DNA of 64,000 nucleotides, taken from a candidate division FCPU426 bacterium. GTDB lineage: Bacteria > Oederibacteriota > Muellerivitia > Muellerivitales > Muellerivitaceae. A program made the translations under genes and the position numbers. Below are positions 3,383-20,606 of the stretch, piece by piece (the stretch's first letter is position 1; each line of letters starts with the position of its first letter). The notes under the pieces were generated by a model that saw only the letters and a program-made list of their open reading frames with translations, did not search any database and was not told the origin of the DNA. The DNA lies in contig CAVTWJ010000009.1 of the NCBI GenBank assembly GCA_963738405.1, positions 128,001-192,000 of the forward strand, given 5' to 3'.

Positions 3383-3385
3383 TCG

Positions 3386-5074: not shown

Positions 5075-5117
5075 TTTCGATCCATTTTCGTAGATGTATT
5101 TCTAACGCTTAGTAAAC

Positions 5118-8003
5118 TTATTGAATTGTCCACCGAACGGTGAATAATTCACTTGTCTTCATTTGTCTTCCCATTCTCTCCTGAAGTTCTTGAACTAAAG
5201 ATTGGTGCTTCTCGTCCAATTCATCCTGGGCGGCAAAGATCTGAACTCGTTTTCTCTTCAATTGAACTTGTAACTCCGCGATTTTTTGTTGAATCTCAAC
5301 TTTTTCAGCTAGACTCGGCACTCGTAGGCTTTGTCGGCGGGCTTCTTTGATTTCGCGTTCAATGGAAGTCAACTCGAAATCCAGGCCTTGTTTTTGATCT
5401 TCGTGCCAAAGCTCCAGCTTGTCTAATTCGGTTTCAAAGTAGTTACGATTTCTTTCCTCCATCTGACTTAACAAAATACCGCGTTGATTTTCAGTTTGAG
5501 TTATCAGAATATCTGGGCAAGAGAGATTACATTGAGTCGAACTTAGAACATTAAGTCCTAACAAACGGCGACATTGGTCAGTATCTAACGGTTGGCCATC
5601 TTCTGTGATGCCAGCCCAAATTAAGTATTCCTCAAGTTGCAATGTATGTACTGCAACTTTAGAAAGACTTAACCAGCCAGATTTACCTAGCAAAGTTTGA
5701 ATAGCGGCTATATTTAAACGGGAACCGGTTAAATCAAGGGTTATATCTGCTGAAGGTAATTTACGAAGTTCCCATTGGTCCAATAAACGCTGGGCAAGAG
5801 GATGACCGACTCTAAAAAGGTAAGTATCTTCGACATTACGCCCTGTTCGATAAGGCCCCTCGGGTATTTCCTCACCAACGAATGGATTTTCTTTAAGAAA
5901 AAAATATTTACCTTCTGGTCCTTCTTTAAACTCTGCAAAATCACGTAATGACCAAGCAGCTAAATCCCAAAGCCAACGACTATAACGATCACGGCCTGCA
6001 ATAGCTAAATCGTCACTAAGACGCAATTTTTCTTGAACTTCGACATCGAAATTCTCTAATAATTGTTGGCGTGTTTGATCCAAACGTTCTTGAATGGGAA
6101 TTTCTAATTCCGTTCGTAGTTGTTCAAAGCTTTTGTCGATCTGTTCAGGTGTTCGACAGTGTTGATAAATATCAGCGATTCTTTTTTCGAAGTCTACGCC
6201 GCTTTCTAATGTACTTAGTACTTGGTCACTCGCGCCAAAAACACCTTCGAAAAGCTTGAACTTTTCGTCTAAAAGCTCAAATACGCGTCTATCGACTTCA
6301 TTATCGAGATTTACAAAATTAACCACTACGACGTCATGCTTTTGGCCATAACGATGACAGCGGCCAATTCTTTGTTCTATGCGTTGGGGATTCCATGGCA
6401 GGTCGTAATTAACGACTAAGTTACAAAATTGGAGGTTGATACCTTCTGCGGCTGCCTCTGTCGCAATCATAATCTGGCCATCTTCTCGGAAATAATCGAC
6501 TAAAGCTTGGCGTGTATCCGCTGTTTTTGAGCCACTGATACGAGAAGTGTTAGCATGTTTGGAAAGCCAAGCTTGATACAAAGCTTTTGCTTGGGGGCCG
6601 TTGTTACTGCCGTTGAAAAGTAATATTTTCCCATGCCATTGGCTTTTTTCGAGTAAACCCAATAGGTATTCTTGGGTTCTGGTAGATTCGGTAAAGATAA
6701 CTGCCTTTTCTGGTGCTCCCAACTCTCTTGCTTTATCAAAACCCTTCGCTAAAGCGGTCAATAAAGCTTCGCCTTTAGAATTACTGTTTATGCTTTCCGC
6801 AAGGGCCTGGAATTCACGTAATCGAGCTATTTCTAGGCGCATTTTTCGTTTTTCTTCTTCTGTGTAGACACGAACTGGTTTTGCTTCGCCGTCTTCTGTT
6901 TCCTGTTCCTCATCATCATCCACCCATTCATCTGGTTGGGCTTCACCGCCTTCATAACCTGGCGTGACCGCTTCGATGTCAAGTTCGGGTGGTGCTGGGG
7001 CAGAAGCTTGTTCTTCAAGTTTTTCCGCCAAATGGTGAAGTGTGCCGGAAATAGCAAAACTCGAGCTTGCTAATAGTTTTCGAACAATCATGGTCATCAG
7101 GGCTCGCTGACTTTTTGGCAAAGCAAAGAGCGTATCTTCTTGCAAGTAATCGGATATTAAATCATATAGTTCTTGTTCCTCTGGTTTAGGATGAAACCCT
7201 TCAGTTATAGACAAGCGGTTCGTATAACGAACGTATTCCAAAACCTGGCGTCTAAGTGTTCGTTGGCAAAGAGGTTTAAGTCTTTCCTTTAAAAGACGAA
7301 AAGAAGAGCCTTGAGTTAAGTTGGAAAATTGGGCTTTAAAAGCTTCTAAAGATCCAAACGCATGGTCGTCAACCAAGCTCACCAGCCCATAAAGTTCTAA
7401 TAGGGAATTTTGTAGTGGCGTAGCAGTTAGAAGGATTTTTGGGTGTTGTGCCAATGCTTCTTTGATTATGTTGGCGATTTTCGCAGTGGGTTTATATACA
7501 TTTCGCAAACGATGGGCTTCGTCAATTACTACCAAATCCCAAGAAGTCCCTTTTACGTAGGACGCTTTAGCTTTTGCGAAATGTAGGGAAGTAATAACCA
7601 CTCGATCTGTTTGGTCAAACGGATTAAAGCGCCCCTTTTCAGTTTCGATATTAAAAGTGGCTTTTTCTAATATAAGAGACTTTAAAAAAAACTTTTGTTC
7701 AAGTTCTTCCGCCCATTGTTTTCGAAGGCTAGCGGGGCAAATAACAAGGAGTCTTCGTTTGCGTTCAGCCCATTTTTGTGAAAGAAGGATGCCTGCTTCA
7801 ATGGTTTTTCCTAAACCCACTTCATCAGCGAGGATAGCCCCGCGAGAAAAAGGTGAACGGAAAGCAAAAAGAGCGGCTTCTACTTGATGGGGATTTAAAT
7901 CGACCTGGGCTTCGGACAAGGTTGCGGCTAATTTATCCATGCTGTCGCTAGGACATTTACGTGTAAGTTCGCTGGCAAGGTATTTAGCGTAGTAGTCGTT
8001 CAT
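5118..8003 (-). CDS. SNF2-family helicase with C-terminal coiled coil
   Basis: LADEVGLGKT, DEAH, LTATP, EGINLQ, YDLPWNP, QRIGRCHRYGQ. Confidence 0.9.
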   Translation of the reverse strand: MNDYYAKYLASELTRKCPSDSMDKLAATLSEAQVDLNPHQVEAALFAFRSPFSRGAILADEVGLGKTIEAGILLSQKWAERKRRLLVICPASLRKQWAEELEQKFFLKSLILEKATFNIETEKGRFNPFDQTDRVVITSLHFAKAKASYVKGTSWDLVVIDEAHRLRNVYKPTAKIANIIKEALAQHPKILLTATPLQNSLLELYGLVSLVDDHAFGSLEAFKAQFSNLTQGSSFRLLKERLKPLCQRTLRRQVLEYVRYTNRLSITEGFHPKPEEQELYDLISDYLQEDTLFALPKSQRALMTMIVRKLLASSSFAISGTLHHLAEKLEEQASAPAPPELDIEAVTPGYEGGEAQPDEWVDDDEEQETEDGEAKPVRVYTEEEKRKMRLEIARLREFQALAESINSNSKGEALLTALAKGFDKARELGAPEKAVIFTESTRTQEYLLGLLEKSQWHGKILLFNGSNNGPQAKALYQAWLSKHANTSRISGSKTADTRQALVDYFREDGQIMIATEAAAEGINLQFCNLVVNYDLPWNPQRIEQRIGRCHRYGQKHDVVVVNFVNLDNEVDRRVFELLDEKFKLFEGVFGASDQVLSTLESGVDFEKRIADIYQHCRTPEQIDKSFEQLRTELEIPIQERLDQTRQQLLENFDVEVQEKLRLSDDLAIAGRDRYSRWLWDLAAWSLRDFAEFKEGPEGKYFFLKENPFVGEEIPEGPYRTGRNVEDTYLFRVGHPLAQRLLDQWELRKLPSADITLDLTGSRLNIAAIQTLLGKSGWLSLSKVAVHTLQLEEYLIWAGITEDGQPLDTDQCRRLLGLNVLSSTQCNLSCPDILITQTENQRGILLSQMEERNRNYFETELDKLELWHEDQKQGLDFELTSIEREIKEARRQSLRVPSLAEKVEIQQKIAELQVQLKRKRVQIFAAQDELDEKHQSLVQELQERMGRQMKTSELFTVRWTIQ

Positions 8004-8178
8004 ACACCCTGAATTCCGGAAAAGTGTGTAAAAGTGTCCAAAAAGGCATCAGCGAGCTTAAAAATTCATCTAATTCTAACCTTTCCAAACTAATCGGTCA
8101 CATCCCATTTATTGCTTTAGGAATTGTTAAAAGAGTTGTTAGGGGGAGGGTTTGGGAGGGAAAGGCCCAAAGAATCAC

Positions 8179-8201
8179 AAAAAGTCCCGCTAGGGACTTT
8201 T
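8179..8201 (-). terminator. Probable intrinsic terminator after radC
   Basis: AAAAGTCCC-GCTA-GGGACTTTT hairpin with T tract on the minus strand. Confidence 0.55.
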
Positions 8202-8218
8202 CGGAAATTCCCGAAGAG

Positions 8219-8701
8219 TTATGCGAGAAGTCCGGCTTGGCGGAAGGAAAAGTGGCCTTCGTGAGTTACAATCAGGTGGTCATGAACCGTTAGCCCCATG
8301 GCCCTTGCAGCGGTGACGATTTGGCGGGTTAATTGCCTATCTCCTTCGGAAGCTTCAAGGCTTCCCCCTGGGTGGTTGTGAGAAAGAAGCAACCCTGAGG
8401 CGTTAAGCTCTAAAGCTTTCTTCAAGACTTCCCTGGGATAGACGGCGGTATGGTCAACGGTTCCATCTCCCATGAGTACGCAATCCAAAACATGGTTTCT
8501 GTGGTCAACGTACATGACTAAAAAGGACTCGTTGGCCTTCCCGCCTATGAAATTCCGGAAATATTCCGCCGCATCCGCAGGACCCGAAAGACATGGCCCC
8601 CTTTTGTAATCTGCCCTGGCTTCAGCCCAGCTCACCGGGGGAACCGTAGGGGGAACCTTGAACATTACGTCTAATTTCATCTCCAACTGTTTCTTTCTCA
8701 T
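8219..8701 (-). CDS. radC: RadC-like JAB/MPN domain protein (short mobile-element type)
   Basis: VYPREV...SHNHPGG...SEGD...HDHLI. Confidence 0.9.
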   Translation of the reverse strand: MRKKQLEMKLDVMFKVPPTVPPVSWAEARADYKRGPCLSGPADAAEYFRNFIGGKANESFLVMYVDHRNHVLDCVLMGDGTVDHTAVYPREVLKKALELNASGLLLSHNHPGGSLEASEGDRQLTRQIVTAARAMGLTVHDHLIVTHEGHFSFRQAGLLA

Positions 8702-9455: not shown

Positions 9456-9592
9456 GTTTATTTGAACGGGACCCTAATTTAATTCTCCCGCCTGAACCAC
9501 CGCCTGATGATGATGGGATTCTAGGCGCAAGCCCTATTCAACTTCCAGATCCACCTCCAGATGAAGACGGATATTTCGAAAAGAGCTTATAA
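9452..9592 (+). CDS. Micro-peptide 4 (46 aa) MSLFERDPNLILPPEPPPDDDGILGASPIQLPDPPPDEDGYFEKSL, two motif copies
   Basis: ATGA coupling; motif occurs twice. Confidence 0.6.
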   Translation: MSLFERDPNLILPPEPPPDDDGILGASPIQLPDPPPDEDGYFEKSL

Positions 9593-10111
9593 CAAGCTGA
9601 AAATTAAACTAATCGTCAAAGATATAATTAGCCCTACCAAACTTGAATACGCTGATAAATTTATTAACATCAGTTTAGCATCGTTACTTTGAATGCTTTG
9701 TTTGATTCTATCCTGGTGATAAAAAGTTATATAACCCAACATGACTTTCAGGGAATTTTCGTTACCTTCTAGTGTTGTTTTTTCTAACCACATACTCGGA
9801 TTGCTTCCTAAGGACCCATATTTATAGCTATGTAAAGAGACAACAATGAGAATCAAACTTAAAACAAAAAATGGTATTAACGATACTAGAAAATAAAACA
9901 AGTTCGGATGAGTGGTTTTAACAACGAATGAGGCGGAAATTTCACCAATTAAAAGAGTCAAGTAACCGTTGAATAAAATAAAGGCTTTCTGCTCTATTTG
10001 TTTTTTTGTTTCGATAACATCGGTTAGTTTTTTTTCCGCCTGATTTAAAGCTTCTCTAACAATACTCATGTTTATATGTTTTAAGTTTTTGATAGCTTCT
10101 TTGGTTAACAC
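9587..10111 (-). CDS. Three-TM membrane protein of unknown function
   Basis: GTG after GGGGGAGG SD; N-terminal helix, two TM, soluble loop, C-terminal TM. Confidence 0.75.
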   Translation of the reverse strand: MLTKEAIKNLKHINMSIVREALNQAEKKLTDVIETKKQIEQKAFILFNGYLTLLIGEISASFVVKTTHPNLFYFLVSLIPFFVLSLILIVVSLHSYKYGSLGSNPSMWLEKTTLEGNENSLKVMLGYITFYHQDRIKQSIQSNDAKLMLINLSAYSSLVGLIISLTISLIFSLL

Positions 10112-10175: not shown

Positions 10176-10820
10176 TCATTTATCAGCACCATGGGCAAGT
10201 TTTTTTAACGCGACTGATAGATCAATTACTTTGTTGTTCACTTTTTTTAAATCGCCAATCAAATGATGAAAATCTTTATATTGGCGTTGAATGATTTGTG
10301 GTGATAGTCCTGGCGATTTGGATCTTTTGTGTTCAAACCAGACTCTGAATTTTGCTTGCCATTCAGTTAGATGTGGTCGTAAGGTGTCATTCAAAAGGGA
10401 AATTAATACTTTTAGTAGTTTTTTTGCATCACCATCATCCGAAAGTTCTTCCACTGGGATAGTAACAATTAGCTCTCTGATTTTTTTAAATAGCTCATAC
10501 CAGGAATTGTAAACTTCAACTATCAAATCATGTTTTTCATCAAATGGTAATGCGGCCTTTCTTGTAACAATTTCTGCCCAAGCTACATGAGCAATTCTGG
10601 AAACTTCCGAGGTTCGTTTAAGTTTAATTTTTGAAGTCCCCAAAGGAACTTCAATCTCTTCAATTTTCCAATGCGAATTACGGTTTAAAAAAAAGTATTT
10701 AATAATCCACATAAGGAAAATTGTTCCCGTGATTAGAAATATCAACGAATTATTTAAATGAAATTTGAATCCATCACTCAGTGTGTAGGAAATGTAAACC
10801 AAATCATCATTAGTATTCAT
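10176..10820 (-). CDS. Hypothetical protein, one N-terminal TM plus helical domain
   Basis: Hydrophobic segment near residues 25-45; ATGA overlap with the Nmad2-like gene. Confidence 0.75.
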   Translation of the reverse strand: MNTNDDLVYISYTLSDGFKFHLNNSLIFLITGTIFLMWIIKYFFLNRNSHWKIEEIEVPLGTSKIKLKRTSEVSRIAHVAWAEIVTRKAALPFDEKHDLIVEVYNSWYELFKKIRELIVTIPVEELSDDGDAKKLLKVLISLLNDTLRPHLTEWQAKFRVWFEHKRSKSPGLSPQIIQRQYKDFHHLIGDLKKVNNKVIDLSVALKKLAHGADK

Positions 10821-11461
10821 TTTATTTCCGAAATGGGAAAAACTTTAGCATTTTTGAACTCTAATGGCATTCCTTTAAAGCCCCATCCGTAACTCACGTC
10901 TATCCATTTGATTATACTCTCTAAGAGTTTTGATGAAGGTTTTCGGTGACCCCTGGCTGAACAACAAATATCTTCTTTTGAAGGACCAAACATTCTAAAA
11001 CGTTTCAAGATTTTAGGGGCGTTCTCGCCGAAATAGACGAATTTATTTGAAACTAAAACACGATTAACGTTAGTGTCGTGCGTAATGTTTTTTCTGTTCG
11101 GTTTCCCTTTCTCTTTACTATGGTGCGAATCTACTTGATGCCATCGATCATTTCTAAAAAAATAAATGTTATCACCATACAGTTGTTTTAAACTCCCATT
11201 TAATTTAGGTCTTTTTGAAAAAAATCTAGGATCACGCCAGTAAGTATTGAAATCAAAAGCTTCTGTGACTTGCATTAAATAAATAATCTTCCCTGCGAAC
11301 CCATACCTGGATTTTGCGCCTGTTCCAATAATCCAATCTCCAATTTGAGCACGTGCTCTTATTTGTGGTTTGCAGGTCGCAAGCGTACACCATCCATAAA
11401 AAGGATTAGGAGCAAATCCATAATCACGGGCAACAATGTAAGAAAAAATATTTAAGGGCAT
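10817..11461 (-). CDS. Nmad2-like (nucleotide modification associated domain 2) protein
   Basis: SYIVARDYGFAPNPFYGWCTLATCKPQIR, GDWIIG, YGDNIY; likely start MPLNIF. Confidence 0.75.
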   Translation of the reverse strand: MPLNIFSYIVARDYGFAPNPFYGWCTLATCKPQIRARAQIGDWIIGTGAKSRYGFAGKIIYLMQVTEAFDFNTYWRDPRFFSKRPKLNGSLKQLYGDNIYFFRNDRWHQVDSHHSKEKGKPNRKNITHDTNVNRVLVSNKFVYFGENAPKILKRFRMFGPSKEDICCSARGHRKPSSKLLESIIKWIDVSYGWGFKGMPLEFKNAKVFPISEIK

Positions 11462-11937
11462 GTGTATCTCTTGATTTGCCATTCAGGATTTCTGTCATTC
11501 CCAGATGCTGGATCTTCCCACTTTTGAGAATTTGTGGAATTTAAAGCATCAACAATCTGTTGACTTTGCCAACCAACAATTGCTGAATCGCCTAACTTTT
11601 GTAGCATATCCGGAATATTTGCTTCAGTTGCACCCTGAGCATAAACACCAATAACTCGTTTACCTTGAGAGATGGCATATTCAATTTCCCAATTAACCCA
11701 CCAGCTAGTATGTGTGTCCTTATCAATTAGAACAACTAGAGCACTAGCCCAATCAATTCTTGGGGCTAATATATTAGTTTTGATGTATTCAGGGTCTTTT
11801 GCTTCGTTAGGTTTTTCGCTATTAATAGAACCATCTCGAACATCCATGCCAGCTTGGCCAATTAAATCTTTAAGCTTAGGTAAAAGCTCGTCATTTTCGT
11901 GTATGTGAGAGATAAATATATTTTTGATATCGGACAT
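11452..11937 (-). CDS. TIR domain protein (ThsB/DUF1863/MTH538-like)
   Basis: IFISH...LVVLI...SWWVNWEIEYA with the catalytic Glu present. Confidence 0.85.
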   Translation of the reverse strand: MSDIKNIFISHIHENDELLPKLKDLIGQAGMDVRDGSINSEKPNEAKDPEYIKTNILAPRIDWASALVVLIDKDTHTSWWVNWEIEYAISQGKRVIGVYAQGATEANIPDMLQKLGDSAIVGWQSQQIVDALNSTNSQKWEDPASGNDRNPEWQIKRYTCP

Positions 11938-12048: not shown

Positions 12049-13056
12049 TCAATGAGTTTTTATTACTTTGTTTGTGCGTTTCAACCAATGGAAAAAAAGG
12101 TTTTTAAATACTCCATTTGTACATTTTAAAATTGTTTTATTTGATAATTCTTGCCAACCTCGCCGTCTTGCCGCCTCAGCTGACAAAATGAATAAAATAT
12201 TTTTGTAAGCGATTGGTGCATTTGGCCAGTAGGTAATAGCCTCGTGTTTTCGCTTAGAAAGTTTCTCGCTAATAAATAGATCAATTTTTCTGCCTAACGC
12301 GAAAAATAAATATTCGGATTGTTTTTTATTAACGGAAATGTTATCTGAATTTCTAGGCGGCTTCCCTTTTTTACAAAAAACTTTATCGGCGAGGTACAAG
12401 TGGAGGCTATCGCTGATTTGATTGTAAGAACCTACTTTAAGTTTTAACCAGCCTGCCAATATTTCTTGAAGATAAGTAAATTGTATAAAATCATAAGGAA
12501 GACCGCGAAAAAGATCATTGCTCCTTAATACTTGCAACCATTCGAGTTTACCGTCTCTAACCTTTAATAAAGAAACAATATTACAAGGAACATCTTCATT
12601 TCTTGGAAGCCCTTTTACTTTAGGAAGGTCTAAATTGGAGTCCCAAATTTCTAAAACAACCTGTCGACTTATTGAATTAGATTTTAATGTTTGATAGGCG
12701 TTCTCGAGTTGATCTAGACCATTTCTTTTTCGGAGTCGAAAACCATATGCTCCGTATAAAGTTTTACCTGAGCCTGCAAAACTAGAAAGTTCTCGGTTCC
12801 AATAAGTTAAAAATTTAGAATCATTTCGGCCATTCATTGTCCAGATGACTTCGGCTAAAGCAAAAGCGATATTCAAAGTGGGTTTTCGAGAAAAAATCCA
12901 TCTTTGACGTGGATCTTCAATTACAAAGCCTGAATGAAGTATTTCCTTTGTTGGGCCAATTCTACTTGGGTGTCTTTGATATTTTTTATTATCATTGAAT
13001 TCGTTAAAGGCTTTTCGCCAAACAATATCAGCGGATTTCCCTTGGAATATTTTCAT
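12049..13056 (-). CDS. Thymidylate synthase-fold pyrimidine (hydroxy)methyltransferase with C-terminal helical extension
   Basis: YGAYGFR, SRQVV, DVPC catalytic Cys, RSNDLFRGLPYD, SLHLY. Confidence 0.85.
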   Translation of the reverse strand: MKIFQGKSADIVWRKAFNEFNDNKKYQRHPSRIGPTKEILHSGFVIEDPRQRWIFSRKPTLNIAFALAEVIWTMNGRNDSKFLTYWNRELSSFAGSGKTLYGAYGFRLRKRNGLDQLENAYQTLKSNSISRQVVLEIWDSNLDLPKVKGLPRNEDVPCNIVSLLKVRDGKLEWLQVLRSNDLFRGLPYDFIQFTYLQEILAGWLKLKVGSYNQISDSLHLYLADKVFCKKGKPPRNSDNISVNKKQSEYLFFALGRKIDLFISEKLSKRKHEAITYWPNAPIAYKNILFILSAEAARRRGWQELSNKTILKCTNGVFKNLFFHWLKRTNKVIKTH

Positions 13057-13059
13057 TTA

Positions 13060-14055
13060 TCAAGCACCCTTTAATCCTTTTGAAATTAGATGATTGATTT
13101 TCCATTTAGGTGGATACCAAAAATGGATATTTTCTTTATTCATTTGATAGATCTGTTTAATTCTTTTACGGCCACTAAGTCCTTGGACTTCTGGATGTGC
13201 AACCCGAGAGTATTTATCAACTTCGCAAAATAAATTCTGACAATCAATATTCTTTAAAGGTCTACCCCATAGGGATTTAAAATTGATGTTAAGTCGCTCG
13301 AATTCTTCGTTTTGCACGTCAGTCACATAACGAATGATATCTGACTCGTTGTAATCATTTAAATCTTCAAAGCACTTACGGATACCATCAAGTGCACCTG
13401 GTCCAGGAACGACAAAATCATTTTCATCAAAATTAGTAATACAACTATAGTTAATATCAATCGTGAATTGATAAGCCAAAAAGTTACCAATGGTCGGGTA
13501 ACTTAATAAAATGGAAAATACTTCCTGCATTGATTTTGAGCGAGAAATATTATCAACGACACGCTCCTTCATTAAAAGTTCAATTAGTTTAAGATGATTT
13601 TTGTGTTTCTTAGAATAACCGAAATAACTTTTTCCTGAAGCCATGATATAAGCCCCGGAATATATTTTTTGATCTTCCTTTAGTGCCTTGGACAAAATCT
13701 TTTCATACATTTCGTATTTATAAGATGAAAAGCGAGGTTGTCCCAATTCCTTACAAAACAATTCCCAAGTACTGATTTTGTTAAATAATTTAAAAAGAAT
13801 AATCCTAAAAAAGATTTCTTTTGCATCAACCGGGCCTGAATAAATAACATTTTTAATTAAGTACTGACTAACTCTGTCAGAAGCACGATAGGCGTTAGTG
13901 AATTTATGTTTGGCGATAATTGGGTCGGAGGTCCATGGACTAGGTTCGTTATAAACTTTTTTAAAAAAAATCGACTGTCTTTCAGCCGCAAAAATCCAAT
14001 AAGTGTCAAATACCTTTGTGGGTTTAGGACGACTCTTAGTAGAAAAAGTAATCAT
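13060..14055 (-). CDS. aGPT-Pplase1-like / 5-hmdU DNA kinase helical-domain protein
   Basis: FAAERQ, PWTSDPII...KFTNAYRASDRVSQYLI, FLAYQFTID, PGPGALDG, QNLFCEVDKY. Confidence 0.75.
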   Translation of the reverse strand: MITFSTKSRPKPTKVFDTYWIFAAERQSIFFKKVYNEPSPWTSDPIIAKHKFTNAYRASDRVSQYLIKNVIYSGPVDAKEIFFRIILFKLFNKISTWELFCKELGQPRFSSYKYEMYEKILSKALKEDQKIYSGAYIMASGKSYFGYSKKHKNHLKLIELLMKERVVDNISRSKSMQEVFSILLSYPTIGNFLAYQFTIDINYSCITNFDENDFVVPGPGALDGIRKCFEDLNDYNESDIIRYVTDVQNEEFERLNINFKSLWGRPLKNIDCQNLFCEVDKYSRVAHPEVQGLSGRKRIKQIYQMNKENIHFWYPPKWKINHLISKGLKGA

Positions 14056-14079
14056 TGTTTATGACCTGGAATTTGATGT

Positions 14080-14802
14080 TTACTTGGATGAATTAGTTAT
14101 TTGTTTAGTGAATGGAGTAGCTATCGGTAATGTTATAGAAGGCGTATTAGGCCGAGAAGATTTAGAACTTGTGATCGAATTAACTAATATTTCTGCTAAA
14201 ACTGTAACTGCAAAAACCAGCACGCCGAACCAGAAAAACTTTTTGATAAAATCGATCGTTTCTTCAACTTTAATCAATCGTTTATTTAATGCGGCAGGTG
14301 AAGCAACTTCACCTGCCATTCTCATTACATCTTCACTAGATATTTCCATCTGATCATATTTTTTGCCATCGTATAAATCATTTGTCTTTTGATCTAGCTT
14401 GGAAAACCAGATCAAAAATATTAACTCGCCACGCGTAAGAACAATATCTCCGCTTCCAGCGTTATAGACAGAAAATTTCAGTCTCCCCCTAAATCCTGGA
14501 TCAACGTGAAATCCAGAAACATTAACTAGGCCACGAAACTTTTTGTCGGCTTTGATTGAAATAAAGCCGATCATATCGGCTGGGATGGTTACGATCTCTT
14601 CTGTGAGAAGAAGAGCGAATTGGCCTGGGGGGATAGCAGTTTGCTTACCAATCTCGAGAAATTTCTTAACCTTATCCCCGGAAATATAGACTTCAGGTCC
14701 TAGGGTTAACTCGTATGCACCGCGTTTTATGTTTTTCGAATCAGAGCTACTAATTAGTTTCGGGAGGATTTTTTTAAGACTTTCAGAGCTTAAAAAGGAC
14801 AC
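14080..14802 (-). CDS. dCTP deaminase/dUTPase-fold protein with C-terminal TM helix
   Basis: AYELTLG, IPPGQFALLLTEE, HVDPGFRG; TM FFWFGVLVFAVTVLAEILV; likely GTG start at 14802 after GGAG. Confidence 0.75.
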   Translation of the reverse strand: MSFLSSESLKKILPKLISSSDSKNIKRGAYELTLGPEVYISGDKVKKFLEIGKQTAIPPGQFALLLTEEIVTIPADMIGFISIKADKKFRGLVNVSGFHVDPGFRGRLKFSVYNAGSGDIVLTRGELIFLIWFSKLDQKTNDLYDGKKYDQMEISSEDVMRMAGEVASPAALNKRLIKVEETIDFIKKFFWFGVLVFAVTVLAEILVNSITSSKSSRPNTPSITLPIATPFTKQITNSSK

Positions 14803-14896
14803 TTTGGCTCCCAAGCAATTACGATGAATTAACGCGGCAAGTATAGCAGTTCTTAATATTGGTTAATATGTTGCAGGATTAGGGTTGTATTCGGTT

Positions 14897-15244
14897 TTAT
14901 TGAACCCACAACAGATCTCGATTTCTAATATTATCGAATCCCGTGAAGCTTCCAAATACACCATATTCTCTTTTGCCTCTGGCTTTATGAGCGTAAGAAA
15001 GCCATTTAATCTTTTCTCCAACCTTCAGGGCATAATCAAATCCAATTCGATAAAAGCCGGGTTCCATTCCGCGTGCTAAGTCTGTCCTTATCTCAATATT
15101 TCTGTCGTATCGCATTGAGCATGCAGGGTCGTTGTAATAAATGAAAATGCAATCCATACCATCCATGATTTCGTAATTATGAAAATATTCGTGAGGAAAC
15201 AACATTGGATCAATGGTGGGTAGTGAGGTATTAAAAAAGCCCAT
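14897..15244 (-). CDS. Hypothetical protein, paralog of 15265-15651
   Basis: IFIYY...GMEPGFYRIGFDYA...EYGVFG. Confidence 0.65.
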   Translation of the reverse strand: MGFFNTSLPTIDPMLFPHEYFHNYEIMDGMDCIFIYYNDPACSMRYDRNIEIRTDLARGMEPGFYRIGFDYALKVGEKIKWLSYAHKARGKREYGVFGSFTGFDNIRNRDLLWVQ

Positions 15245-15264
15245 TAAGTGCCTCTGTCAAGAAA

Positions 15265-15651
15265 TTACGCGGACCAGATAATAAGGTGTTTTGGTATTTC
15301 TCTGGGGGCCCTGACCCAAGGATGATTCACTCCCGAAAAAATCCCAAACTCCATTTTATTGTGATCGTGGTAAGCATGCAAAAGCGAATTAGGATCACCA
15401 TTTGATTCAACGGCGTAATCGAAATATGGCAGGTAGAATCCAGGTAACATGCCTAAGCTTAAATTCACTTTGACCTCGATTCTTCGCTTATAGGAAATCT
15501 GACCGAGTGAATCAAAGTCATTACCTTTTCTCGCATAGTCCCGGTAATAAACAAAAATAGTGTCTTCTCCTAAGGGATTTTGGAAACGATTGAAATATCC
15601 AACCGGATTTCCTTTTGGGTGTAACACTAATGAAGTTAGGTTGATTGCCAT
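15265..15651 (-). CDS. Hypothetical protein, paralog of 14897-15244
   Basis: Likely start MAINLT after a G-rich SD; IFVYY...GMLPGFYLPYFDYA...EFGIFS. Confidence 0.65.
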   Translation of the reverse strand: MAINLTSLVLHPKGNPVGYFNRFQNPLGEDTIFVYYRDYARKGNDFDSLGQISYKRRIEVKVNLSLGMLPGFYLPYFDYAVESNGDPNSLLHAYHDHNKMEFGIFSGVNHPWVRAPREIPKHLIIWSA

Positions 15652-15747
15652 TTTTCCCCCCTGGGAACATTCACGAATGAATTTTAAGTTAGCAGGGCAA
15701 AATATACAGCCAAATTTAGTCCAAAGAGTTTGGGACATTGGACCAGG

Positions 15748-15804
15748 TGAAGGGGGTGTGCCGAGGATCGCCGAAGGCAGCCGAGGCCAGGGGGAAGGCT
15801 TTCC
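15748..15804 (+). repeat. Structured intergenic repeat, copy 1
   Basis: TGAAGGGGGTGTGCCGAGGATCGCCGAAGGCAGCCGAGGCCAGGGGGAAGG. Confidence 0.85.
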
Positions 15805-15821
15805 ACCAAGAGACGAGTCTT

Positions 15822-16031
15822 TTAACCGGAACGTCTTCTTTGTCTTGCATGAAGTTTCGCATGTGCGTTTGGGCTCATATTGATGAGATTGTTACGTCTG
15901 AAGTTTTTCGGATTTCCGTCTATATGATGCGTGACTTGATTCCCTTTGGGTTTGGCAACAGTTCTATGAACCAATAACCCGCTATTATTCCAGACAGGAT
16001 ATCCTTTTGGATTGTAATGAAACCTTCCCAT
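15822..16031 (-). CDS. Minimal HNH endonuclease-like protein
   Basis: VHRTVA...HHIDGNPKNFRRNNL...HAKLH; AGGAG SD before MGRFHY. Confidence 0.75.
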   Translation of the reverse strand: MGRFHYNPKGYPVWNNSGLLVHRTVAKPKGNQVTHHIDGNPKNFRRNNLINMSPNAHAKLHARQRRRSG

Positions 16032-16061
16032 GAATTTTCTCCTTTCACCCATGAACTTCGC

Positions 16062-16418
16062 TTACGCACTCAACCTTACATGTAGAAGCCAGACATCGAC
16101 CACCATGTGAAATTCATAATCATCTAAAGGCATTCCATGTCTGAGTTTGGTGGCGATTCGACGGTCAAAATCGGCATGCTCTCCCTTCGCCTCCGGTGAG
16201 GGCTCAACGATCTCGATGGCAAATTTCAACAGATCCCCAGTCAACCGTTCATTGCGAATCAGCTTCCTTTTTATTTGGCCACAGCGCCAGTTTCGGAGTT
16301 TGCGAGCTTCCTCCTTTTCGGGATTCCGAAACGCGCGCATGAAACAATCTTCCATGAACAAATCTTCTGGCCAAACCAATTCGAACGGTTTCTTTGGCTC
16401 ATTTTTCATAGGCTTCAC
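16062..16418 (-). CDS. Hypothetical protein
   Basis: 118-aa ORF co-oriented with neighbours; start uncertain. Confidence 0.55.
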   Translation of the reverse strand: MKPMKNEPKKPFELVWPEDLFMEDCFMRAFRNPEKEEARKLRNWRCGQIKRKLIRNERLTGDLLKFAIEIVEPSPEAKGEHADFDRRIATKLRHGMPLDDYEFHMVVDVWLLHVRLSA

Positions 16419-16540
16419 CTTTCGGGTATTTGAGAATATTTAAACCCTGAGTGGGAGAACAAATAAAAAAATTATGGGTAGAAGTAATCAAAACTGTGCT
16501 GAGTGACACCAAACGGGGTTTTGTTTACATTCCCGTAACA

Positions 16541-16596
16541 TGAAGGGGGAGGTGGGCCGAGGATCACCGAAGGTAGCTGAGGCAAGGGGGAAGACC
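16541..16596 (+). repeat. Structured intergenic repeat, copy 2
   Basis: TGAAGGGGGAGGTGGGCCGAGGATCACCGAAGGTAGCTGAGGCAAGGGGGAAG. Confidence 0.85.
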
Positions 16597-16599
16597 TAT

Positions 16600-16824
16600 T
16601 TACCTTTTTCTTAAGGGGCGATCTCCTCTTCGACGGTCCGCCCATGCGGCCAGGTCCTCAGAAGGGAATCGAAGACATCTGGCTGTGAATTTAACAAACG
16701 GTATTGGATCGGCTTCCCAAGGGGACCTTGAAACCCAATGGTAAAGTGTCCCGGCTTCTACCCCGAGAAAATTAGAAGCCTCTTTGATGTTCAAATATCT
16801 CAAATTGTCCTTCGGATTTTCCAT
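16600..16824 (-). CDS. Excisionase-like HTH DNA-binding protein
   Basis: YLNIKEASNFLGVEAGTLYHWV...IPFVKF...LRF...DLAAW. Confidence 0.8.
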   Translation of the reverse strand: MENPKDNLRYLNIKEASNFLGVEAGTLYHWVSRSPWEADPIPFVKFTARCLRFPSEDLAAWADRRRGDRPLRKR

Positions 16825-16860
16825 TTCATTCCTGATTTAGTGATATATCAGCGTATTGTT

Positions 16861-16911
16861 AGGGTGTGTTGAAATCACCAAAGGCAGCCGAGGACAGGGG
16901 GAAAGCGTTCC
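16861..16911 (+). repeat. Structured intergenic repeat, copy 3 (degenerate)
   Basis: AGGGTGTGTTGAAATCACCAAAGGCAGCCGAGGACAGGGGGAAAG. Confidence 0.75.
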
Positions 16912-16924
16912 CTCCAATTCGCAG

Positions 16925-17908
16925 TTATTTTTCCAATTCGCGTTTAATCTCAGATAGGGAAAGCCGCTTACCTTGCCATTCCCGAATAAGTTTAACCTTT
17001 TCGACAGCCTCTAACGGATACAAGGTGTAACCCGATTCGGTATGGTCCGCCGGTTTCAAGAGCCCTTCTTTGGTCCAATGGCGAATAGTTGCGGTGCTTT
17101 CACGGGTCTTTCGGGCCAGGGCCCCGATCCGAAGCAGGGAAGTAGTATCCTGGGCTTCCTGAGCAGGGCTTTCCCCTTTTGCGGCTTTCAAGTAAATATC
17201 AAGTGACCGATCGATAATCCTGTACATGAGCGCTTCATAGTCTTCGATGCTCCCCCCCAACTGTGCTTTTTCTAACCCGTTTAAATAAGCCAAACGCTCA
17301 CGGGTACGGATGAAGGCCGGGGGATAACCTTTTTGCATTAAAAGCAGGTTCATCAAAAGCCGGGCTGTTCTGCCGTTACCATCGACAAATGGATGGATAC
17401 TCACCAGACGGTAATGCGCTTGAGCCGCCAACTCGGCAGGGTGTAGGTCGGTGGTCGATTTGAGCCAGGATGCGAATTGACTCATGAGTTGGGGAACTTT
17501 TTGGGCATTAGGAAGCACGACCGTGGAACCGGAAATTCTGACCATTAGGGTCCGGTACCTTCCGGCATTGGAATCGTCGATACCCTTAAGAATCATCCCA
17601 TGAAGTTCCAGGATCTCTTTTTCGCCTACAGGGTGCCTTGGACTGGAAACAACCTCTTTTAACCAATCCAAAGCCTTGGCATGGTTGGTGGCTTCCAAGT
17701 GTTCCCGCATCGTCCGGCCACCAACGGTAATCCCTTTTTCCAGGACAATAGCCGTTTCCTGGCGGGTGAGGGTATTGCCCTCAATCGCGTTGCTCGTATA
17801 AGTCAGCTCAACCCGGAACCATTCTTCCAGGTTCAGGATTAATGCGGGTTTAAGCGGACGTAAGGCGTCCAGGCGCTTCTTTTTTGTGTCGAGTTTGTTC
17901 CAGTTCAT
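16925..17908 (-). CDS. Fic-domain protein fused to a C-terminal MerR-type HTH
   Basis: SNAIEGN inhibitory motif, HPFVDGNGRTAR, LRIGALA...TIRHWTKEGLL...SGYTLY. Confidence 0.9.
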   Translation of the reverse strand: MNWNKLDTKKKRLDALRPLKPALILNLEEWFRVELTYTSNAIEGNTLTRQETAIVLEKGITVGGRTMREHLEATNHAKALDWLKEVVSSPRHPVGEKEILELHGMILKGIDDSNAGRYRTLMVRISGSTVVLPNAQKVPQLMSQFASWLKSTTDLHPAELAAQAHYRLVSIHPFVDGNGRTARLLMNLLLMQKGYPPAFIRTRERLAYLNGLEKAQLGGSIEDYEALMYRIIDRSLDIYLKAAKGESPAQEAQDTTSLLRIGALARKTRESTATIRHWTKEGLLKPADHTESGYTLYPLEAVEKVKLIREWQGKRLSLSEIKRELEK

Positions 17909-17915
17909 GACACTA

Positions 17916-17944
17916 AGTATAAAGTGTAACGTTACGGTTTACAA
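17916..17944 (-). promoter_or_regulatory. Promoter of Fic-MerR with an operator palindrome in the spacer
   Basis: TTGTAA-N17-TATACT, 7 nt before ATG; GTAACGTTAC palindrome at 17926-17935. Confidence 0.6.
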
Positions 17945-17952
17945 GATGGTTT

Positions 17953-17990
17953 TACTCAGTCATTGAGTATTTTTACTCAATGACTGAGTA
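17953..17990. repeat. Perfect 17-bp inverted repeat with self-palindromic arms
   Basis: TACTCAGTCATTGAGTA-TTTT-TACTCAATGACTGAGTA. Confidence 0.9.
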
Positions 17991-18144
17991 TTTTCGAAAA
18001 TGGCTTTTAAGGGAGTATTTACAATTTATTCAGCCACCTGAACAAATTGTTTTTGCCGGAATTGCCCTGTCAAGGAAGGCCTTTTTGGCGGTTCGAGACA
18101 AAGGCAAGCCTTTAATAAGCCATTTCGTTATTAAGGATAAGGCA

Positions 18145-18375
18145 TTATCTTTTAATATCTTTGGTCGATGATGTTTCAGGTTTTTGGAATGTTTTATTGA
18201 ATACAGAAAGCCAAATTCGAGGATGTTTTCCCACCTTGACGGAGGGAAGCATCCCCATTTGCCGCCAATATTTAACTGTGTTGACGGGAACCTTAGCGAG
18301 ATCCGCTACTTCTTGTTCTGTCAAAAGGTAATCTTCGTGTTTCAACCGGGGGTCACCCATTACAGTTTTTTTCAT
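18145..18375 (-). CDS. Excisionase-like HTH DNA-binding protein
   Basis: LLTEQEVADLAKVPVNTVKYWRQMGMLPSVKVGKHPRI. Confidence 0.8.
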   Translation of the reverse strand: MKKTVMGDPRLKHEDYLLTEQEVADLAKVPVNTVKYWRQMGMLPSVKVGKHPRIWLSVFNKTFQKPETSSTKDIKR

Positions 18376-18540
18376 GACTGTCTCCTGTTTTTTAAAGTTG
18401 GGAAAACGGCCATTTTAAAGACCCCTTAGTTATTAAGGGTTTTGTGATCCCACGGTGCCTTTCCTCGTGTCATATACGTGTCATTCGGAGTTGTTTTGTA
18501 AGTTTTTAACAGGCCGCCAGAGGTCACCAACGATCAGAAC

Positions 18541-18583
18541 AAAAAAGCCTCTGCTCGTAAAACCATTACGGGCAAAGGCTTTT
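18541..18583 (-). terminator. Long hairpin with T tail just inside the island end
   Basis: Minus strand AAAAGCCTTTGCCCGTAA-TGGTT-TTACGAGCAGAGGCTTTTTT. Confidence 0.7.
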
Positions 18584-18640
18584 AAAAATGTGCTGGGGAC
18601 TGAATTTTTTGCTCGAAGATGTCGGTTGTGGCCTGAAAAA

Positions 18641-18680
18641 ATTTCAAGTCCACTGCCTTACCAATTAGGACTAACCCTCC
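18641..18680 (-). tRNA. 5' half of tRNA-Ser(UGA), interrupted just after the anticodon loop
   Basis: GGAGGGT-TA-GTCCTAATTGGTAAGGC-A-GTGGA-CTTGAAA-T; the expected TCCAC, variable arm and T arm are absent. Confidence 0.8.
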
Positions 18681-18690
18681 AGCCGGGTTG

Positions 18691-18719
18691 ATTGTATCTG
18701 CTTTTCTTCCGCCTGTCAG
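18691..18719 (-). promoter_or_regulatory. tRNA promoter
   Basis: CTGACA-N17-TACAAT, 10 nt upstream of the tRNA 5' end. Confidence 0.7.
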
Positions 18720-18773
18720 GGTTGCTCATTGTACCCAAATTCATTTTTTCAACAACAAATGAATTAAAACGTC

Positions 18774-20606
18774 TTATTTTTCCAGATACCCTTTGAGTTC
18801 CCGGCTTCTGGAGGGATGTCGGAGTTTGCGAAGAGCCTTGGCCTCGATTTGCCGGATTCTTTCCCGCGTGACATTGTAAACACTGCCGACCTCTTCCAAA
18901 GTTTGAGTCCGGCCGTCGTTCAAACCGAAACGCATTCTGAGTATTTCTGCTTCCCTTTCTTTGAGGGTTCCCAGGACCTTGCCGATTTTTTCTTGAAGAA
19001 GCACGAAAGCGGCCGCGTCCGCAGGGGAAACCACCTGTTTGTCCTCGATAAAATCGCCTAGATGGACGTTATTGTCCTCCCCCACCGGGGTTTCCAACGA
19101 TACGGGGGATTGGGCGACTTTTAAAATGGATTGAACCTTTTCGATCGGCAGCTCCAAACGCTCTGCGGCCTCGTCGGCCGTGGGTTCCCGCCCTAATTCC
19201 TGGGCCAGGTCGCGTGACACCTTGATGAACTTATTAATCACCTCATTCATGTGGACGGGAATTCGAATGGTGCGGGCCTGGTCCGAAATGGCCCGGGTGA
19301 TGGCTTGACGCACCCACCATGTGGCGTAGGTGGAAAATTTATAACCACGCCGGTATTCGAATTTTTCTACGGCTTTCATCAGGCCGATATTTCCTTCCTG
19401 GATCAAATCCAAGAAAGAGAGGCCTCGATTGGCGTACTTTTTCGCGATCGAAATCACGAGGCGCAGATTGGCTTCCACCATTTCCATGCCCGCTCGATAG
19501 GATTCTCGTTCACCCTTTCGAATGTTTTTCATCATGGCCTTGATGTCCTCTCGGTCGGCCATGGTTTCTTTTTCGATTTTCTTGATGTTTCGGCGGGCCT
19601 CATCCCAAGCGAGGGCGGCGGCCAGGAAATCCTCCCCTTTGAGCGAACTCTTTTTTTCAATCGGCGCTAACCGGTTGGGGGAGGTTGATTTTAAAAGGCT
19701 GGGGAGCTTGATGTATTCCGCAGGCGAGAGATTCATTCTACTTTCCTGTTTGTGCATCGCGTGTTCTTGGCGGTCGATGTTGTCGCCTTGTTCCTTCATG
19801 CGGTCGATCAGGCGTTCACGCACTTTTTTCTGGAACTGGCAATCTTTCACTAGCCAAATCAGATCAATTAATTGAGTGTCCAATTTTTCGATCAGCTTTT
19901 TTTTCTTTTCAGGCGACAGGGATTTGAGCGTGGTCTGATGCTGCAACGCCTTGATTTGGCGTTCCATGATTTTAAGCTTTCCATGGTTTTTCTTAATCTT
20001 GTCCATGATCTTTTTTTCGGGAATTCCATCGGGAGAATCCGCATAGGGGTTTAAGTCGATGGTTTCCTGAAGGGTTTTTGTTTTTTTGATGATGGATAAA
20101 AAAAGCTCATGCAATTGTAGGAACCCTAAAGCTGAGCCAAGAACTTCTTTTCCTACCATAAATTCACCGGCCTCAATCCGCTTGGAAATGGAAATTTCTT
20201 CCGCCCTGCTGAGAAGAGGAACCCGGCCCATTTGATGAAGGTAGAGTTTGACCGGGTCGCCCATGCGCGATTCCGCACCGGATTCGACGAAGGATTCTGC
20301 CGGTTCGTCATCCTCATCTTCGTTTTTGGTCAGGGTGGCGGAGTTATCGGAGTCGGATTCAGATGCGTCATCAGTTGAAACGGCGGCTTTTTCCGCCCGG
20401 TTAACGACCTCAATGTCGTTTTCCCCCAGGGCGAGAAGCAGATGGTCGATCTCTTTCAGCGACACCACTTCCTCGGGAAGAATGTCGTTCACCTGTTTGT
20501 GGGTGACATAACCCTTTTCTTTTCCCGCCGCCAGGATTTTTACCAGATAAGGTGATTTTTTTTTCGTGTCAGGTTTGATGGGGATGGTCCTTTTTTCATT
20601 GATCAC
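18774..20606 (-). CDS. rpoD: RNA polymerase sigma-70 factor, group 1 type
   Basis: Region 1.1, [56 protein letters not shown]. Confidence 0.93.

Follow-up and report, generated by a model that had tools for sequence, protein, structure and literature searches.

We analysed 64,000 nt of a candidate division FCPU426 bacterium (assembly GCA_963738405.1, contig CAVTWJ010000009.1, positions 128,001 to 192,000; hereafter the window), in which a minus-strand gene cassette resembles DS-4 (working id NTTI), an Escherichia coli anti-phage system found with DefensePredictor (Science 2026, PMC13092281). The open reading frames (ORFs) of the whole window and of 20 kb to its left were scanned with Pfam, and 11 island ORFs were compared with PHROGs. 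The first three genes of the cassette, module A, encode a Dcd/dUTPase-fold protein (14080..14802; PF22769, 3.9e-12), an HMUDK_hel/aGPT-Pplase1 protein (HEL; 13060..14055; PF18723, 2.5e-110) and a thymidylate synthase (TS)-fold protein (12049..13056; PF00303, 2.2e-19). Module B, on the same strand, consists of a ThsB-type TIR gene (11452..11937; PF08937, 2.4e-21; PADLOC ThsB model PDLC00418, 6.2e-54), an Nmad2 gene (10817..11482; PF18753, 2.1e-68) and ORF214 (10176..10820), which encodes a membrane protein of an unnamed family, 'c11'. ORF174 (9587..10111), encoding a protein with two transmembrane (TM) segments, is a possible last gene of the operon, although its membership is uncertain.

A first-pass annotation of the window had taken 12049..14802 as the unit. 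Pfam bore out its three gene identities (Dcd-fold, aGPT-Pplase1-like and TS-like) on the minus strand. The intergenic gaps that it gave, 24 nt between the Dcd and HEL genes (14056-14079) and 3 nt between the HEL and TS genes (13057-13059), were read again from the sequence, and the end coordinate 14802 is the GTG start of the Dcd-like gene. The three genes are real, but they are half of the unit: the TIR-Nmad2-ORF214 module and the published relative had been missed. Modules A and B are separated by 111 nt, from the TS stop to the start of the TIR gene. Within module B the TIR and Nmad2 genes overlap by 31 nt and the Nmad2 gene and ORF214 by 4 nt, and 64 nt follow before ORF174. The cassette genes have a G+C content (GC) of 31-40%, compared with about 47-55% in the host part. 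A promoter and terminator scan gave fewer sites than shuffled sequences and no clear signal in the 111-nt gap.

HEL (331 aa) matched positions 1-280 of the 281 of PF18723, a family labelled 'alpha-glutamyl/putrescinyl thymine pyrophosphorylase clade 1' by JGI and in one phage record; Pfam found no P-loop kinase domain in its 331 residues. Searches of the PDB sequences with HEL alone or as a profile returned nothing useful. The AlphaFold2 model (predicted local distance difference test, pLDDT, 91.5) has an all-alpha fold predicted to resemble that of helix-hairpin-helix (HhH) glycosylases. Among 48,161 chains its top structural match was the PaMx11 gp46 5-PmdU glycinyltransferase (8z2m_A; Z 10.5, root-mean-square deviation 4.1, 226 residues aligned), followed by QNG1 (Z 10.1) and then by HhH DNA glycosylases, and all 23 rows with Z >= 5 share the fold. 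QNG1 is a nucleotide N-glycosidase of queuine salvage. Foldseek against the PDB gave no match at E <= 1e-3 for this model, with gp46/PUGT at a probability of 0.72 and E of 0.6. Cys277-Glu278 was invariant in 16/16 HEL sequences. In the clade 2 enzymes, a conserved Cys, which attacks the pyrimidine C6, and a neighbouring Glu are described as essential (PMC8989533), and Cys247 is given as the catalytic Cys of gp46 (PMC11472151). Cys277-Glu278 of HEL is a candidate counterpart of this Cys-Glu pair needed by the phage 5-PmdU:amino-acid transferases. There are at least 8000 HEL homologues, those listed having 59-71% identity; with the genome loci described below the range across phyla is 56-71%. 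Many are fused to Thymidylate_kin. The window cassette has no kinase, and the PF02223 matches of the genome lie on other contigs. Two adjoining thymidylate-kinase-like paralogues (231 and 266 aa; G000:C17:10958-12084, L086) stand beside a Ppx/GppA phosphatase gene; the canonical tmk is on contig C22.

The TS-like protein (335 aa) has a Cys158 nucleophile, an Arg178-Ser179-Asp181 motif and a family-specific C-terminal extension of about 110 aa; the Cys and the Arg-Ser-x-Asp motif are invariant among the TS-like homologues of related loci. Its best PDB match was the CMP 5-hydroxymethylase MilA (5.2e-28), as against 1.4e-10 for the best ThyA, and it scored under every NCBIfam TS cut-off (best 57.9 bits vs. 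174.55). In the printed alignment, Asp189 (motif 'LPYD') stands at the position of ThyA Asn177, and MilA has an Asp there too. We take Asn177, in E. coli ThyA numbering, to be the uracil-specifying position. An Asn-to-Asp exchange there swaps the preference between dUMP and dCMP, both in TS and in the dCMP hydroxymethylase of T4. Since Asp replaces the Asn177 equivalent, a cytosine-nucleotide substrate is predicted for the window enzyme, which is most likely a cytosine-nucleotide C5 hydroxymethylase as far as its residues predict. All 24 TS homologues in the related loci had Asn at this position. Among the best 120 database homologues, Asn was found in 104 and Asp in 14 (motif unmatched in 2), and the Asp group takes in the query and its closest relative (63% identity). 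When the Asp-type alignment served as the seed of a metagenome scan, the 80 loci obtained had Asn in 70 cases and Asp in 9, with one undetermined. Because Asp recurs as a minority state, it is not an error. A tie of the Asp-type enzyme to one gene context was considered and dropped; the nine metagenome loci include kinase-fused (L143, L159) and kinase-less (L130) examples.

The window gene is the sole PF00303 match in the 3.18-Mb assembly (90.7% complete). The host has ThyX as its one other thymidylate synthase (a 539-aa ORF with two Thy1 domains in tandem; G000:C21:60506-61918), so the TS-like gene is not needed for dTMP. That the enzyme just complements thyA, the scenario that the first-pass annotation had set against its own reading, is unlikely given ThyX, the scores under the cut-offs, MilA as the closest match and the Asp at the Asn177 position.

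The Dcd-like protein is 240 aa long from the GTG at 14802 and 244 aa from a TTG at 14814. The GTG is the likelier start because the N-terminus MSFLS is common to the homologues and GGGAG lies upstream. A beta-barrel domain and a helical linker come first, then a single computed TM helix towards the C-terminus (residues 187-205) and, last, a low-complexity tail; aligned family members also have a hydrophobic stretch after the linker. Against TIGR02274 the protein scored 66.9 bits, under the cut-off of 92.8. The family profile matched 9ln0/8y1w ('dCTP deaminase', 4e-25), 4xjc (1.9e-16) and E. coli Dcd (2.5e-11), and its matches to dUTPases were weak. The family keeps the Asp of 'VDPGF' without exception, and the Glu of 4xjc 'ITLELFN' is replaced by Ser or Ala in aligned members ('FSVYN'/'FAVYN'). 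Glu138 of E. coli Dcd is, we assume, the deaminase residue. We read the protein as a putative membrane-tethered module that binds dNTPs or acts as a pyrophosphatase, not as a deaminase.

In the TIR protein (161 aa), Glu84 was invariant in 20/20 sequences, and so was the C-terminal Cys160. Glu84 aligned with the Glu of 'YEIE' in 8wcf, and we take its position to be the catalytic one. The family profile matched 8wcf (1.4e-13), 8fz9 (1.2e-11), ThsB1 9b7d (1.7e-9) and 6lhy (1.8e-9), and neither MilB nor a nucleoside deoxyribosyltransferase was among its PDB matches at E <= 1. The Nmad2 protein (221 aa) has a conserved pocket of Asp20, Cys32, Cys37, Lys38, His121 and Asp136. Its profile gave chance rows only against the PDB sequences. 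The AlphaFold2 model of Nmad2 had a pLDDT of 83.3. A structural comparison with VIA gave 17 rows at Z >= 5 (7.5 to 5.2), all of them YTH, ASCH, EVE, the DrmA N-terminus, VcaM4I or McrB-N, and the model resembles the PUA-like fold of modified-base readers.

The two proteins were predicted to form a complex, with a median score of 0.82 compared with 0.01 for the best of three controls. The runs agreed in at least 91% of the contacts, and the partner pLDDT was at least 87. Of 157 solved complexes, 116 attained the mark used for such predictions, as did 2 of 215 mismatched pairs; this calibration is only roughly valid here, own alignments having been used. In the predicted interface, TIR residues 148-160 face Nmad2 residues 19, 21, 28-30, 37, 119-124 and 135-136, and the predicted contact sites adjoin the invariant Asp20, Cys37, His121 and Asp136 of Nmad2. 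A profile search of the whole library gave 3063 cluster representatives of Nmad2. Of 15 long Nmad2 proteins picked by hand, four were TIR fusions and five had no further domain; the others, one each, were fused to MazG+MazG_C, NOV_C, Nmad3, Macro (weak), pentapeptide repeats and a zinc ribbon.

In ORF214 a TM helix at the N-terminus (residues 22-40) is combined with a soluble domain of helices, and no Pfam family matched the protein. Two homologues (L142, 39% identity, 3e-38; L123, 37.5%, 2e-37) lie directly upstream of a TIR-Nmad2-DCD-HEL-TS set, and weaker matches were found to members of c11 (L114, 6.5e-9; L078, 8.7e-5), whose proteins are about 160 aa long. In 80 genome loci with HEL relatives, a c11/ORF214-type or TIR-SLOG gene lay within 3 kb of Nmad2 in 15 of the 25 Nmad2 loci, TIR-SLOG partners accounting for 7 of the 25, and in 0/55 loci without Nmad2. 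In the metagenome set, such a gene was near Nmad2 in 6 of 14 Nmad2 loci, and two c11 members were in loci without Nmad2. A relationship of ORF214 to ThsG/DUF6650 is a tentative possibility: the atlas comparison was a weak lead (score 0.77), HMMER matched DUF6650 in 0/13 family members (ORF214 and 12 relatives) at E <= 1, and a search of 99 genomes of the phylum yielded no DUF6650. With PADLOC, no ThsA was matched in the window.

ORF174 has 31% GC, lies on the cassette strand and encodes two hydrophobic segments. Two adjacent paralogous ORFs of 115 and 157 aa (14897-15244 and 15265-15738) immediately precede the cassette on its strand. Neither Pfam, NCBIfam, PHROGs nor PADLOC assigned ORF115, ORF157 or ORF174 to a family. 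A blastp comparison with the 80 genome loci gave no match to them, and none of the ORFs in the 80 metagenome loci was labelled with any of the three. ORF157 and ORF115 were not counted as members of the system.

The linkage of these genes was determined from a genome scan for HEL relatives, in which 546 of 599 stretches were confirmed. The counts cover genes within 7 kb of the HEL gene in the best 80 of the 546 loci, chosen as nearest relatives rather than drawn at random. They come from Bacteroidota, Cyanobacteria, Chloroflexota, Acidobacteriota, Planctomycetota and Proteobacteria, with HEL at 56-62% identity. A kinase was near HEL in 32/80 loci (fused in 25), TS in 29/80 and MazG+MazG_C in 42/80; TS or MazG was present in 68/80 and both together in 3/80. 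Twenty-five of the TS loci had a kinase and 4 did not; for the MazG loci these numbers were 9 and 33. Dcd-like genes were found in 30/80 loci and Nmad2 in 25/80, 24 of the latter also with TIR and 16 without a kinase. The full set of Dcd, HEL, TS, TIR and Nmad2 occurred in 3/80 loci: L072, L078 and L076, the last of which has no kinase, like the window. An ImmA/IrrE-type peptidase was near HEL in 46/80 loci, an XRE helix-turn-helix (HTH) gene in 42/80, a protein without a named family ('c1') in 46/80 and a small acyl carrier protein (ACP)-like protein ('c5') in 41/80. The peptidase switch and Nmad2 rarely occurred together (both in 6 loci, switch only in 40, Nmad2 only in 19). Many relatives carry XRE, ImmA/IrrE peptidase, a 270-aa protein and the small ACP-like protein (PP-binding, 0.0036) upstream of the HEL gene (for example L025 7394-8227, L067 6628-6918 and L069 7592-7993), and 11/80 loci have a 4'-phosphopantetheinyl transferase. 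The ACP-like protein and this transferase hint at carrier-protein chemistry in those versions; the window holds none of the XRE, ImmA/IrrE, 270-aa, ACP-like and 4'-phosphopantetheinyl transferase genes.

The cassette lies among other defence genes. To its left, downstream of the cassette (671-8701), are RadC, a DrmD-like SNF2 helicase (PADLOC, 2.5e-204), type III Mod (7.9e-208) and Res (1.5e-206), and an Abi-alpha-like gene is also on this side. In the 20 kb left of the window (L168, G000:C9:108001-128000), positions 13534-19985 hold the island's left end, with a tyrosine integrase, a TraG/TraD-like coupling protein and an AIPR abortive-infection gene. To the right, an AlpA-type HTH gene (16600-16824) and a Fic-MerR gene (16925-17908; 327 aa, a Fic domain and a C-terminal MerR-type HTH) precede rpoD. 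The integrase, the TraG/TraD-like protein and the AlpA-type HTH suggest an integrative mobilisable element of about 25 kb beside rpoD. No phage structural, packaging, lysis or replication genes were found among the Pfam-scanned ORFs of the window or in the 20-kb left flank, and PF18723 was found in 0/40 related genomes searched. We see in this setting a defence island of integrative and probably mobilisable type rather than a prophage; the non-phage island of the first-pass annotation thus holds, now with the integrase, the TraG-like protein, the AlpA-type HTH and the defence genes. PADLOC recognised only the TIR, helicase and restriction-modification genes, and its models do not cover the TS, HEL, Dcd and Nmad2 genes.

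Further observations concern the island's right end and the rest of the window. The Fic-MerR gene, which falls in the PADLOC candidate families PDC-S04 and SoFic, is a further likely gene of defence or toxin type. A 38-nt G+C-rich repeat occurs in three copies (15767-15804, 16563-16600 and 16874-16911; 76-100% identity; chance expectation 0 matches), and each copy closely follows the stop codon of one of three ORFs on the minus strand (the HNH fragment, HTH_17 and Fic-MerR). At the right end of the island the repeat could mark a cassette boundary or be an element like repetitive extragenic palindromes. The other 44 kb of the window carry usual envelope and metabolic genes, and no tRNA genes were found in the window. 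No RNA data sets were listed for the locus; one soil-metagenome DNA run had a 0.06 share of words.

Taken together, we consider it more likely than not that an anti-phage cassette of the DS-4 family, made of two modules, was acquired here by horizontal transfer and that the three enzyme genes form its module A, the copy being kinase-less and having a cytosine-type TS-like enzyme. That the cassette serves in defence is the part of which we are most confident, and it appears likely. A role in conflict with phages had been proposed in the first-pass annotation, through self-marking of host DNA or poisoning of the dNTP pool, and such a role gains indirect support from the four of five DS-4 families and from the type III restriction-modification, DrmD-like helicase, AIPR and Abi-like neighbours. 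Module A probably makes a C5-modified pyrimidine nucleotide, with the odds modestly in favour. That it acts on phage DNA rather than only on the nucleotide pool is a tentative proposal, which we hold to be on the doubtful side.

The substrates, the products and the order of steps are those that we infer. The membrane-tethered Dcd/dUTPase-fold protein would most likely bind dCTP/dUTP or hydrolyse them to the monophosphate. The TS-fold enzyme would put a one-carbon group, most likely hydroxymethyl, on C5, and its substrate here would most likely be a cytosine nucleotide. HEL, with its HhH-glycosylase fold and Cys-Glu pair, would then act on the C5-substituted pyrimidine, most likely once this is in newly replicated (phage) DNA. 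As a net effect, canonical dNTPs would be drained and replicating phage DNA marked or damaged. Module B would form a Thoeris-like arm with a reader (Nmad2), a signal generator (TIR) and an effector (ORF214), in which Nmad2 is predicted to hold the TIR protein by its conserved C-terminal Cys tail, and ORF214 may take the place held by the TIR-SLOG protein in other copies.

Several points weigh against this account. The window copy has no kinase, which goes with TS in 25/29 related loci. The pathway is thus perhaps incomplete, dependent on a host kinase or ending at the monophosphate, and the MilA/MilB-like explanation considered below is kept alive. The window copy also has no XRE/ImmA-type switch like that of 46/80 relatives. 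Since 42/80 loci have MazG instead of TS, HEL cannot need a self-made hydroxymethyl group in all of them. The fold matches of Nmad2 (Z <= 7.5) are in a range where common arrangements can score, and Foldseek gave no match at E <= 1e-3 for the Nmad2 model (best E 0.034) or the HEL model. Finally, the phenotype of DS-4 itself is weak (one phage, a less than 10-fold effect on efficiency of plating (EOP) and small plaques), and in its report the system is not dissected, nor is it named in the main text (PMC13092281).

A more specific version of the DS-4-type account is that the cassette puts a self-made label on phage DNA or on the pool, which Nmad2 then reads. Upon infection, module A would turn the dCTP pool into a nucleotide of the 5-hydroxymethyl-cytosine type that enters only replicating (phage) DNA or the pool, and the Cys-Glu enzyme HEL would process it. 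The Nmad2 pocket would sense the modified pyrimidine and free the Cys tail of TIR, which would signal to ORF214. The Asn/Asp switch in the TS-like enzyme might set the label as 5-hydroxymethyluracil or 5-hydroxymethylcytosine. We regard this scheme as speculative and rather unlikely.

Alternatively, the modified pyrimidine may be placed in host DNA as a self label, as the first-pass annotation had also suggested, with the SNF2 helicase and type III Mod/Res restricting unmarked DNA. The Dpd 7-deazaguanine system is the model for such an arrangement. Members of the HEL family are described as modifying bases within DNA in phages (PMC8989533, PMC11472151), and the DrmD/DpdE-like SNF2, type III Mod and type III Res genes lie 1.6 kb downstream of the cassette on the same strand. 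In another phylum, the Vicinamibacterales locus L078 (7180-11797) has counterparts of SNF2 (51% identity) and of Mod (57%) next to its cassette on the downstream side; because SNF2/Mod adjoin the cassette both there and here, the two units may travel together. In L113, Mod adjoins an Asp-type TS. However, SNF2 was present in only 4/80 and Mod in 3/80 genome loci, the type III pair has its own methyltransferase, and an 885-nt gap and the RadC gene (52% GC) separate the two units. The XRE/ImmA switch of 46/80 relatives fits an induced response better than constant marking, and a genome-wide replacement of C or T would require that the canonical dNTP be excluded. In addition, DS-4 is listed as active as a five-gene unit without such neighbours (PMC13092281). 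We consider self-marking unlikely.

A MilA/MilB-like pair could instead free 5-hydroxymethyl-pyrimidine or act as a sink for pyrimidine nucleotides, as an antimetabolite or chemical defence that leaves DNA unmodified. The closeness of the TS-like protein to MilA and its cytosine-type Asp agree with this, as does an HHpred match of the DS-4 TIR to MilB (4JEM_B, probability 0.99; PMC13092281). Moreover, the window copy lacks a kinase to re-phosphorylate a modified dNMP, like the 16/25 kinase-less Nmad2 loci, and QNG1 was the second-best structural match of HEL. Against it, the TIR profile matched ThsB-type TIRs (1.4e-13 to 1.8e-9) and no MilB at E <= 1, the TIR-SLOG partners in 7/25 Nmad2 loci point to signalling, and TS occurs with a kinase in 25/29 loci. 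This explanation, too, seems improbable to us.

The genes may also be the remnant or cargo of a degraded prophage, in which they hypermodified the phage's own DNA as a counter-defence. HEL relatives are indeed found in 470 phage records, among them phage LuckyBarnes, in which a TS gene and two glycosyltransferases precede the HEL homologue, and an Ackermannviridae phage, in which the homologue follows an NTP pyrophosphohydrolase gene. PHROGs holds both families (phrog_2396, 3.8e-59; phrog_5131, 4.4e-57). The best phage match, however, has 34.7% identity, compared with 56-71% for bacterial chromosomal homologues. Neither the window nor the left flank yielded a phage gene for structure, packaging, lysis or replication, the island has an integrase and a TraG-like protein, and the TIR-Nmad2 linkage and the XRE/ImmA switches are features of bacterial defence. 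A phage origin of this kind is therefore very unlikely. That the TS-like and Dcd-like genes are a spare thyA and dcd of ordinary metabolism can practically be dismissed: Pfam and TIGRFAM recognise both folds and the TS-like gene is the only PF00303 match in the assembly, but ThyX is present, the scores stay below every curated cut-off for TS and for dCTP deaminase, the Asn177 position holds Asp, the deaminase Glu is missing, the Dcd-like protein has a TM anchor, the GC is low and the HEL family was found in 0/40 relatives searched.

The kind of system found here is already known, and one member was validated in 2026. What is new is the kinase-less architecture with Dcd and ORF214, the Asp-type TS and the predicted TIR-Nmad2 interface. 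Few validated defence systems are made of nucleotide-modifying enzymes, and DS-4-type cassettes belong to these. Given that HEL is widespread and unusually conserved across phyla, one solved copy would explain many. The window copy is compact and intact, with no kinase, no repressor switch and a TS predicted to be of the cytosine type, and it is thus a convenient minimal version for biochemistry. It offers testable handles in the Asp/Asn dimorphism, in the predicted TIR-Nmad2 heterodimer with its Cys tail in the pocket and in the Nmad2-specific ORF214/TIR-SLOG partners. If phage DNA is marked or poisoned by a self-made modified base, this would be a defence principle new to bacteria, and if the mark is then read, the bacterial system would manufacture its own non-self label. 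The enzymes would then also be useful for DNA-modification chemistry.

These domains were reportedly defined by Iyer et al. 2013 and Burroughs et al. 2015, and this kind of system is said to have been predicted earlier by comparative genomics. In the literature searched, we found no mechanistic study of DS-4-type cassettes, Nmad2 or clade 1 proteins. The thymidine hypermodification pathway of phages M6, ViI and PaMx11 is described as using a 5-hmdU DNA kinase and an aGPT-Pplase2 amino-acid:DNA transferase (PMC8989533, PMC11472151). HEL is a clade 1 relative of these aGPT-Pplase2 transferases as they are presented there, with a Cys-Glu pair like that of clade 2 and a neighbouring TS-fold gene like the dUMP hydroxymethylases. 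It differs in belonging to clade 1, whose activity was not established at the writing of PMC8989533. The window has no 5-hmdU DNA kinase, pyridoxal-phosphate enzyme, radical S-adenosylmethionine partner or flavin adenine dinucleotide partner, and its HEL is bacterial, chromosomal and TIR-linked, with at most 35% identity to phage homologues.

MilB of the mildiomycin pathway is a CMP/hmCMP N-glycosidase, and T4 gp42 is a dCMP hydroxymethylase. MilA is the closest solved relative of the window TS, both have the Asp, and in both cases a gene of the TIR/nucleoside deoxyribosyltransferase fold is nearby. About 200 of the 335 residues of the window TS align with MilA, whereas the C-terminal 110 residues are family-specific. 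Unlike MilB, the partner in the window profiles as a ThsB-type TIR, and no antibiotic-pathway genes are at the locus.

With Thoeris types I-XI (Yirmiya et al., bioRxiv 2025, doi 10.64898/2025.12.03.692087), the cassette shares a ThsB-type TIR with the conserved Glu and, in the place of the effector, a small partner that may carry a TM helix at its N-terminus, or TIR-SLOG in related loci. Type VI is given there as TIR and ThsG/DUF6650, the latter sometimes with N-terminal TM helices. In the window, the TIR gene is instead coupled to Nmad2, a name with 0 occurrences in the text of that preprint, and ORF214 and its relatives lack the DUF6650/ThsG match by the HMMER comparison above.

The closest known system is thus DS-4, for which Table S8 lists TS (361 aa), a dNMP kinase (185 aa), HMUDK_hel (340 aa), TIR/'NDT' (163 aa) and Nmad2 (220 aa), marked as replicated, and the only phenotype row of Table S7 is phage lambda with smaller plaques and a -log EOP of 0.93 (PMC13092281). 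The DefensePredictor text counts the 5-hydroxymethyluracil kinase domain and thymidylate synthase among the newly validated defence domains; by Table S8 both are parts of DS-4. The legend to its Fig. 6F places aGPT-Pplase, MazG, MazG-C, dUTPase and NMAD domains in predicted, unvalidated systems (PMC13092281). Compared with the DS-4 of these tables, the window cassette has no dNMP kinase (T4 gp1-like) and adds the membrane-anchored Dcd-like gene and the ORF214-type membrane gene. Its gene order is Dcd-HEL-TS instead of TS-kinase-HEL, and its TS has Asp where that of DS-4, by eye, apparently has Asn. The window nevertheless holds four of the five DS-4 families on one strand (TS, HMUDK_hel, a ThsB-type TIR of about 160 aa and an Nmad2 of about 220 aa). 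By eye, the two systems share Cys-Glu-x-Asp-Lys in HEL and FAPNPF...C-x4-CK in Nmad2. Both have tightly spaced enzyme genes, then a gap (111 nt in the window and 93 nt in DS-4 by its listed coordinates) and then an overlapping TIR-Nmad2 pair.

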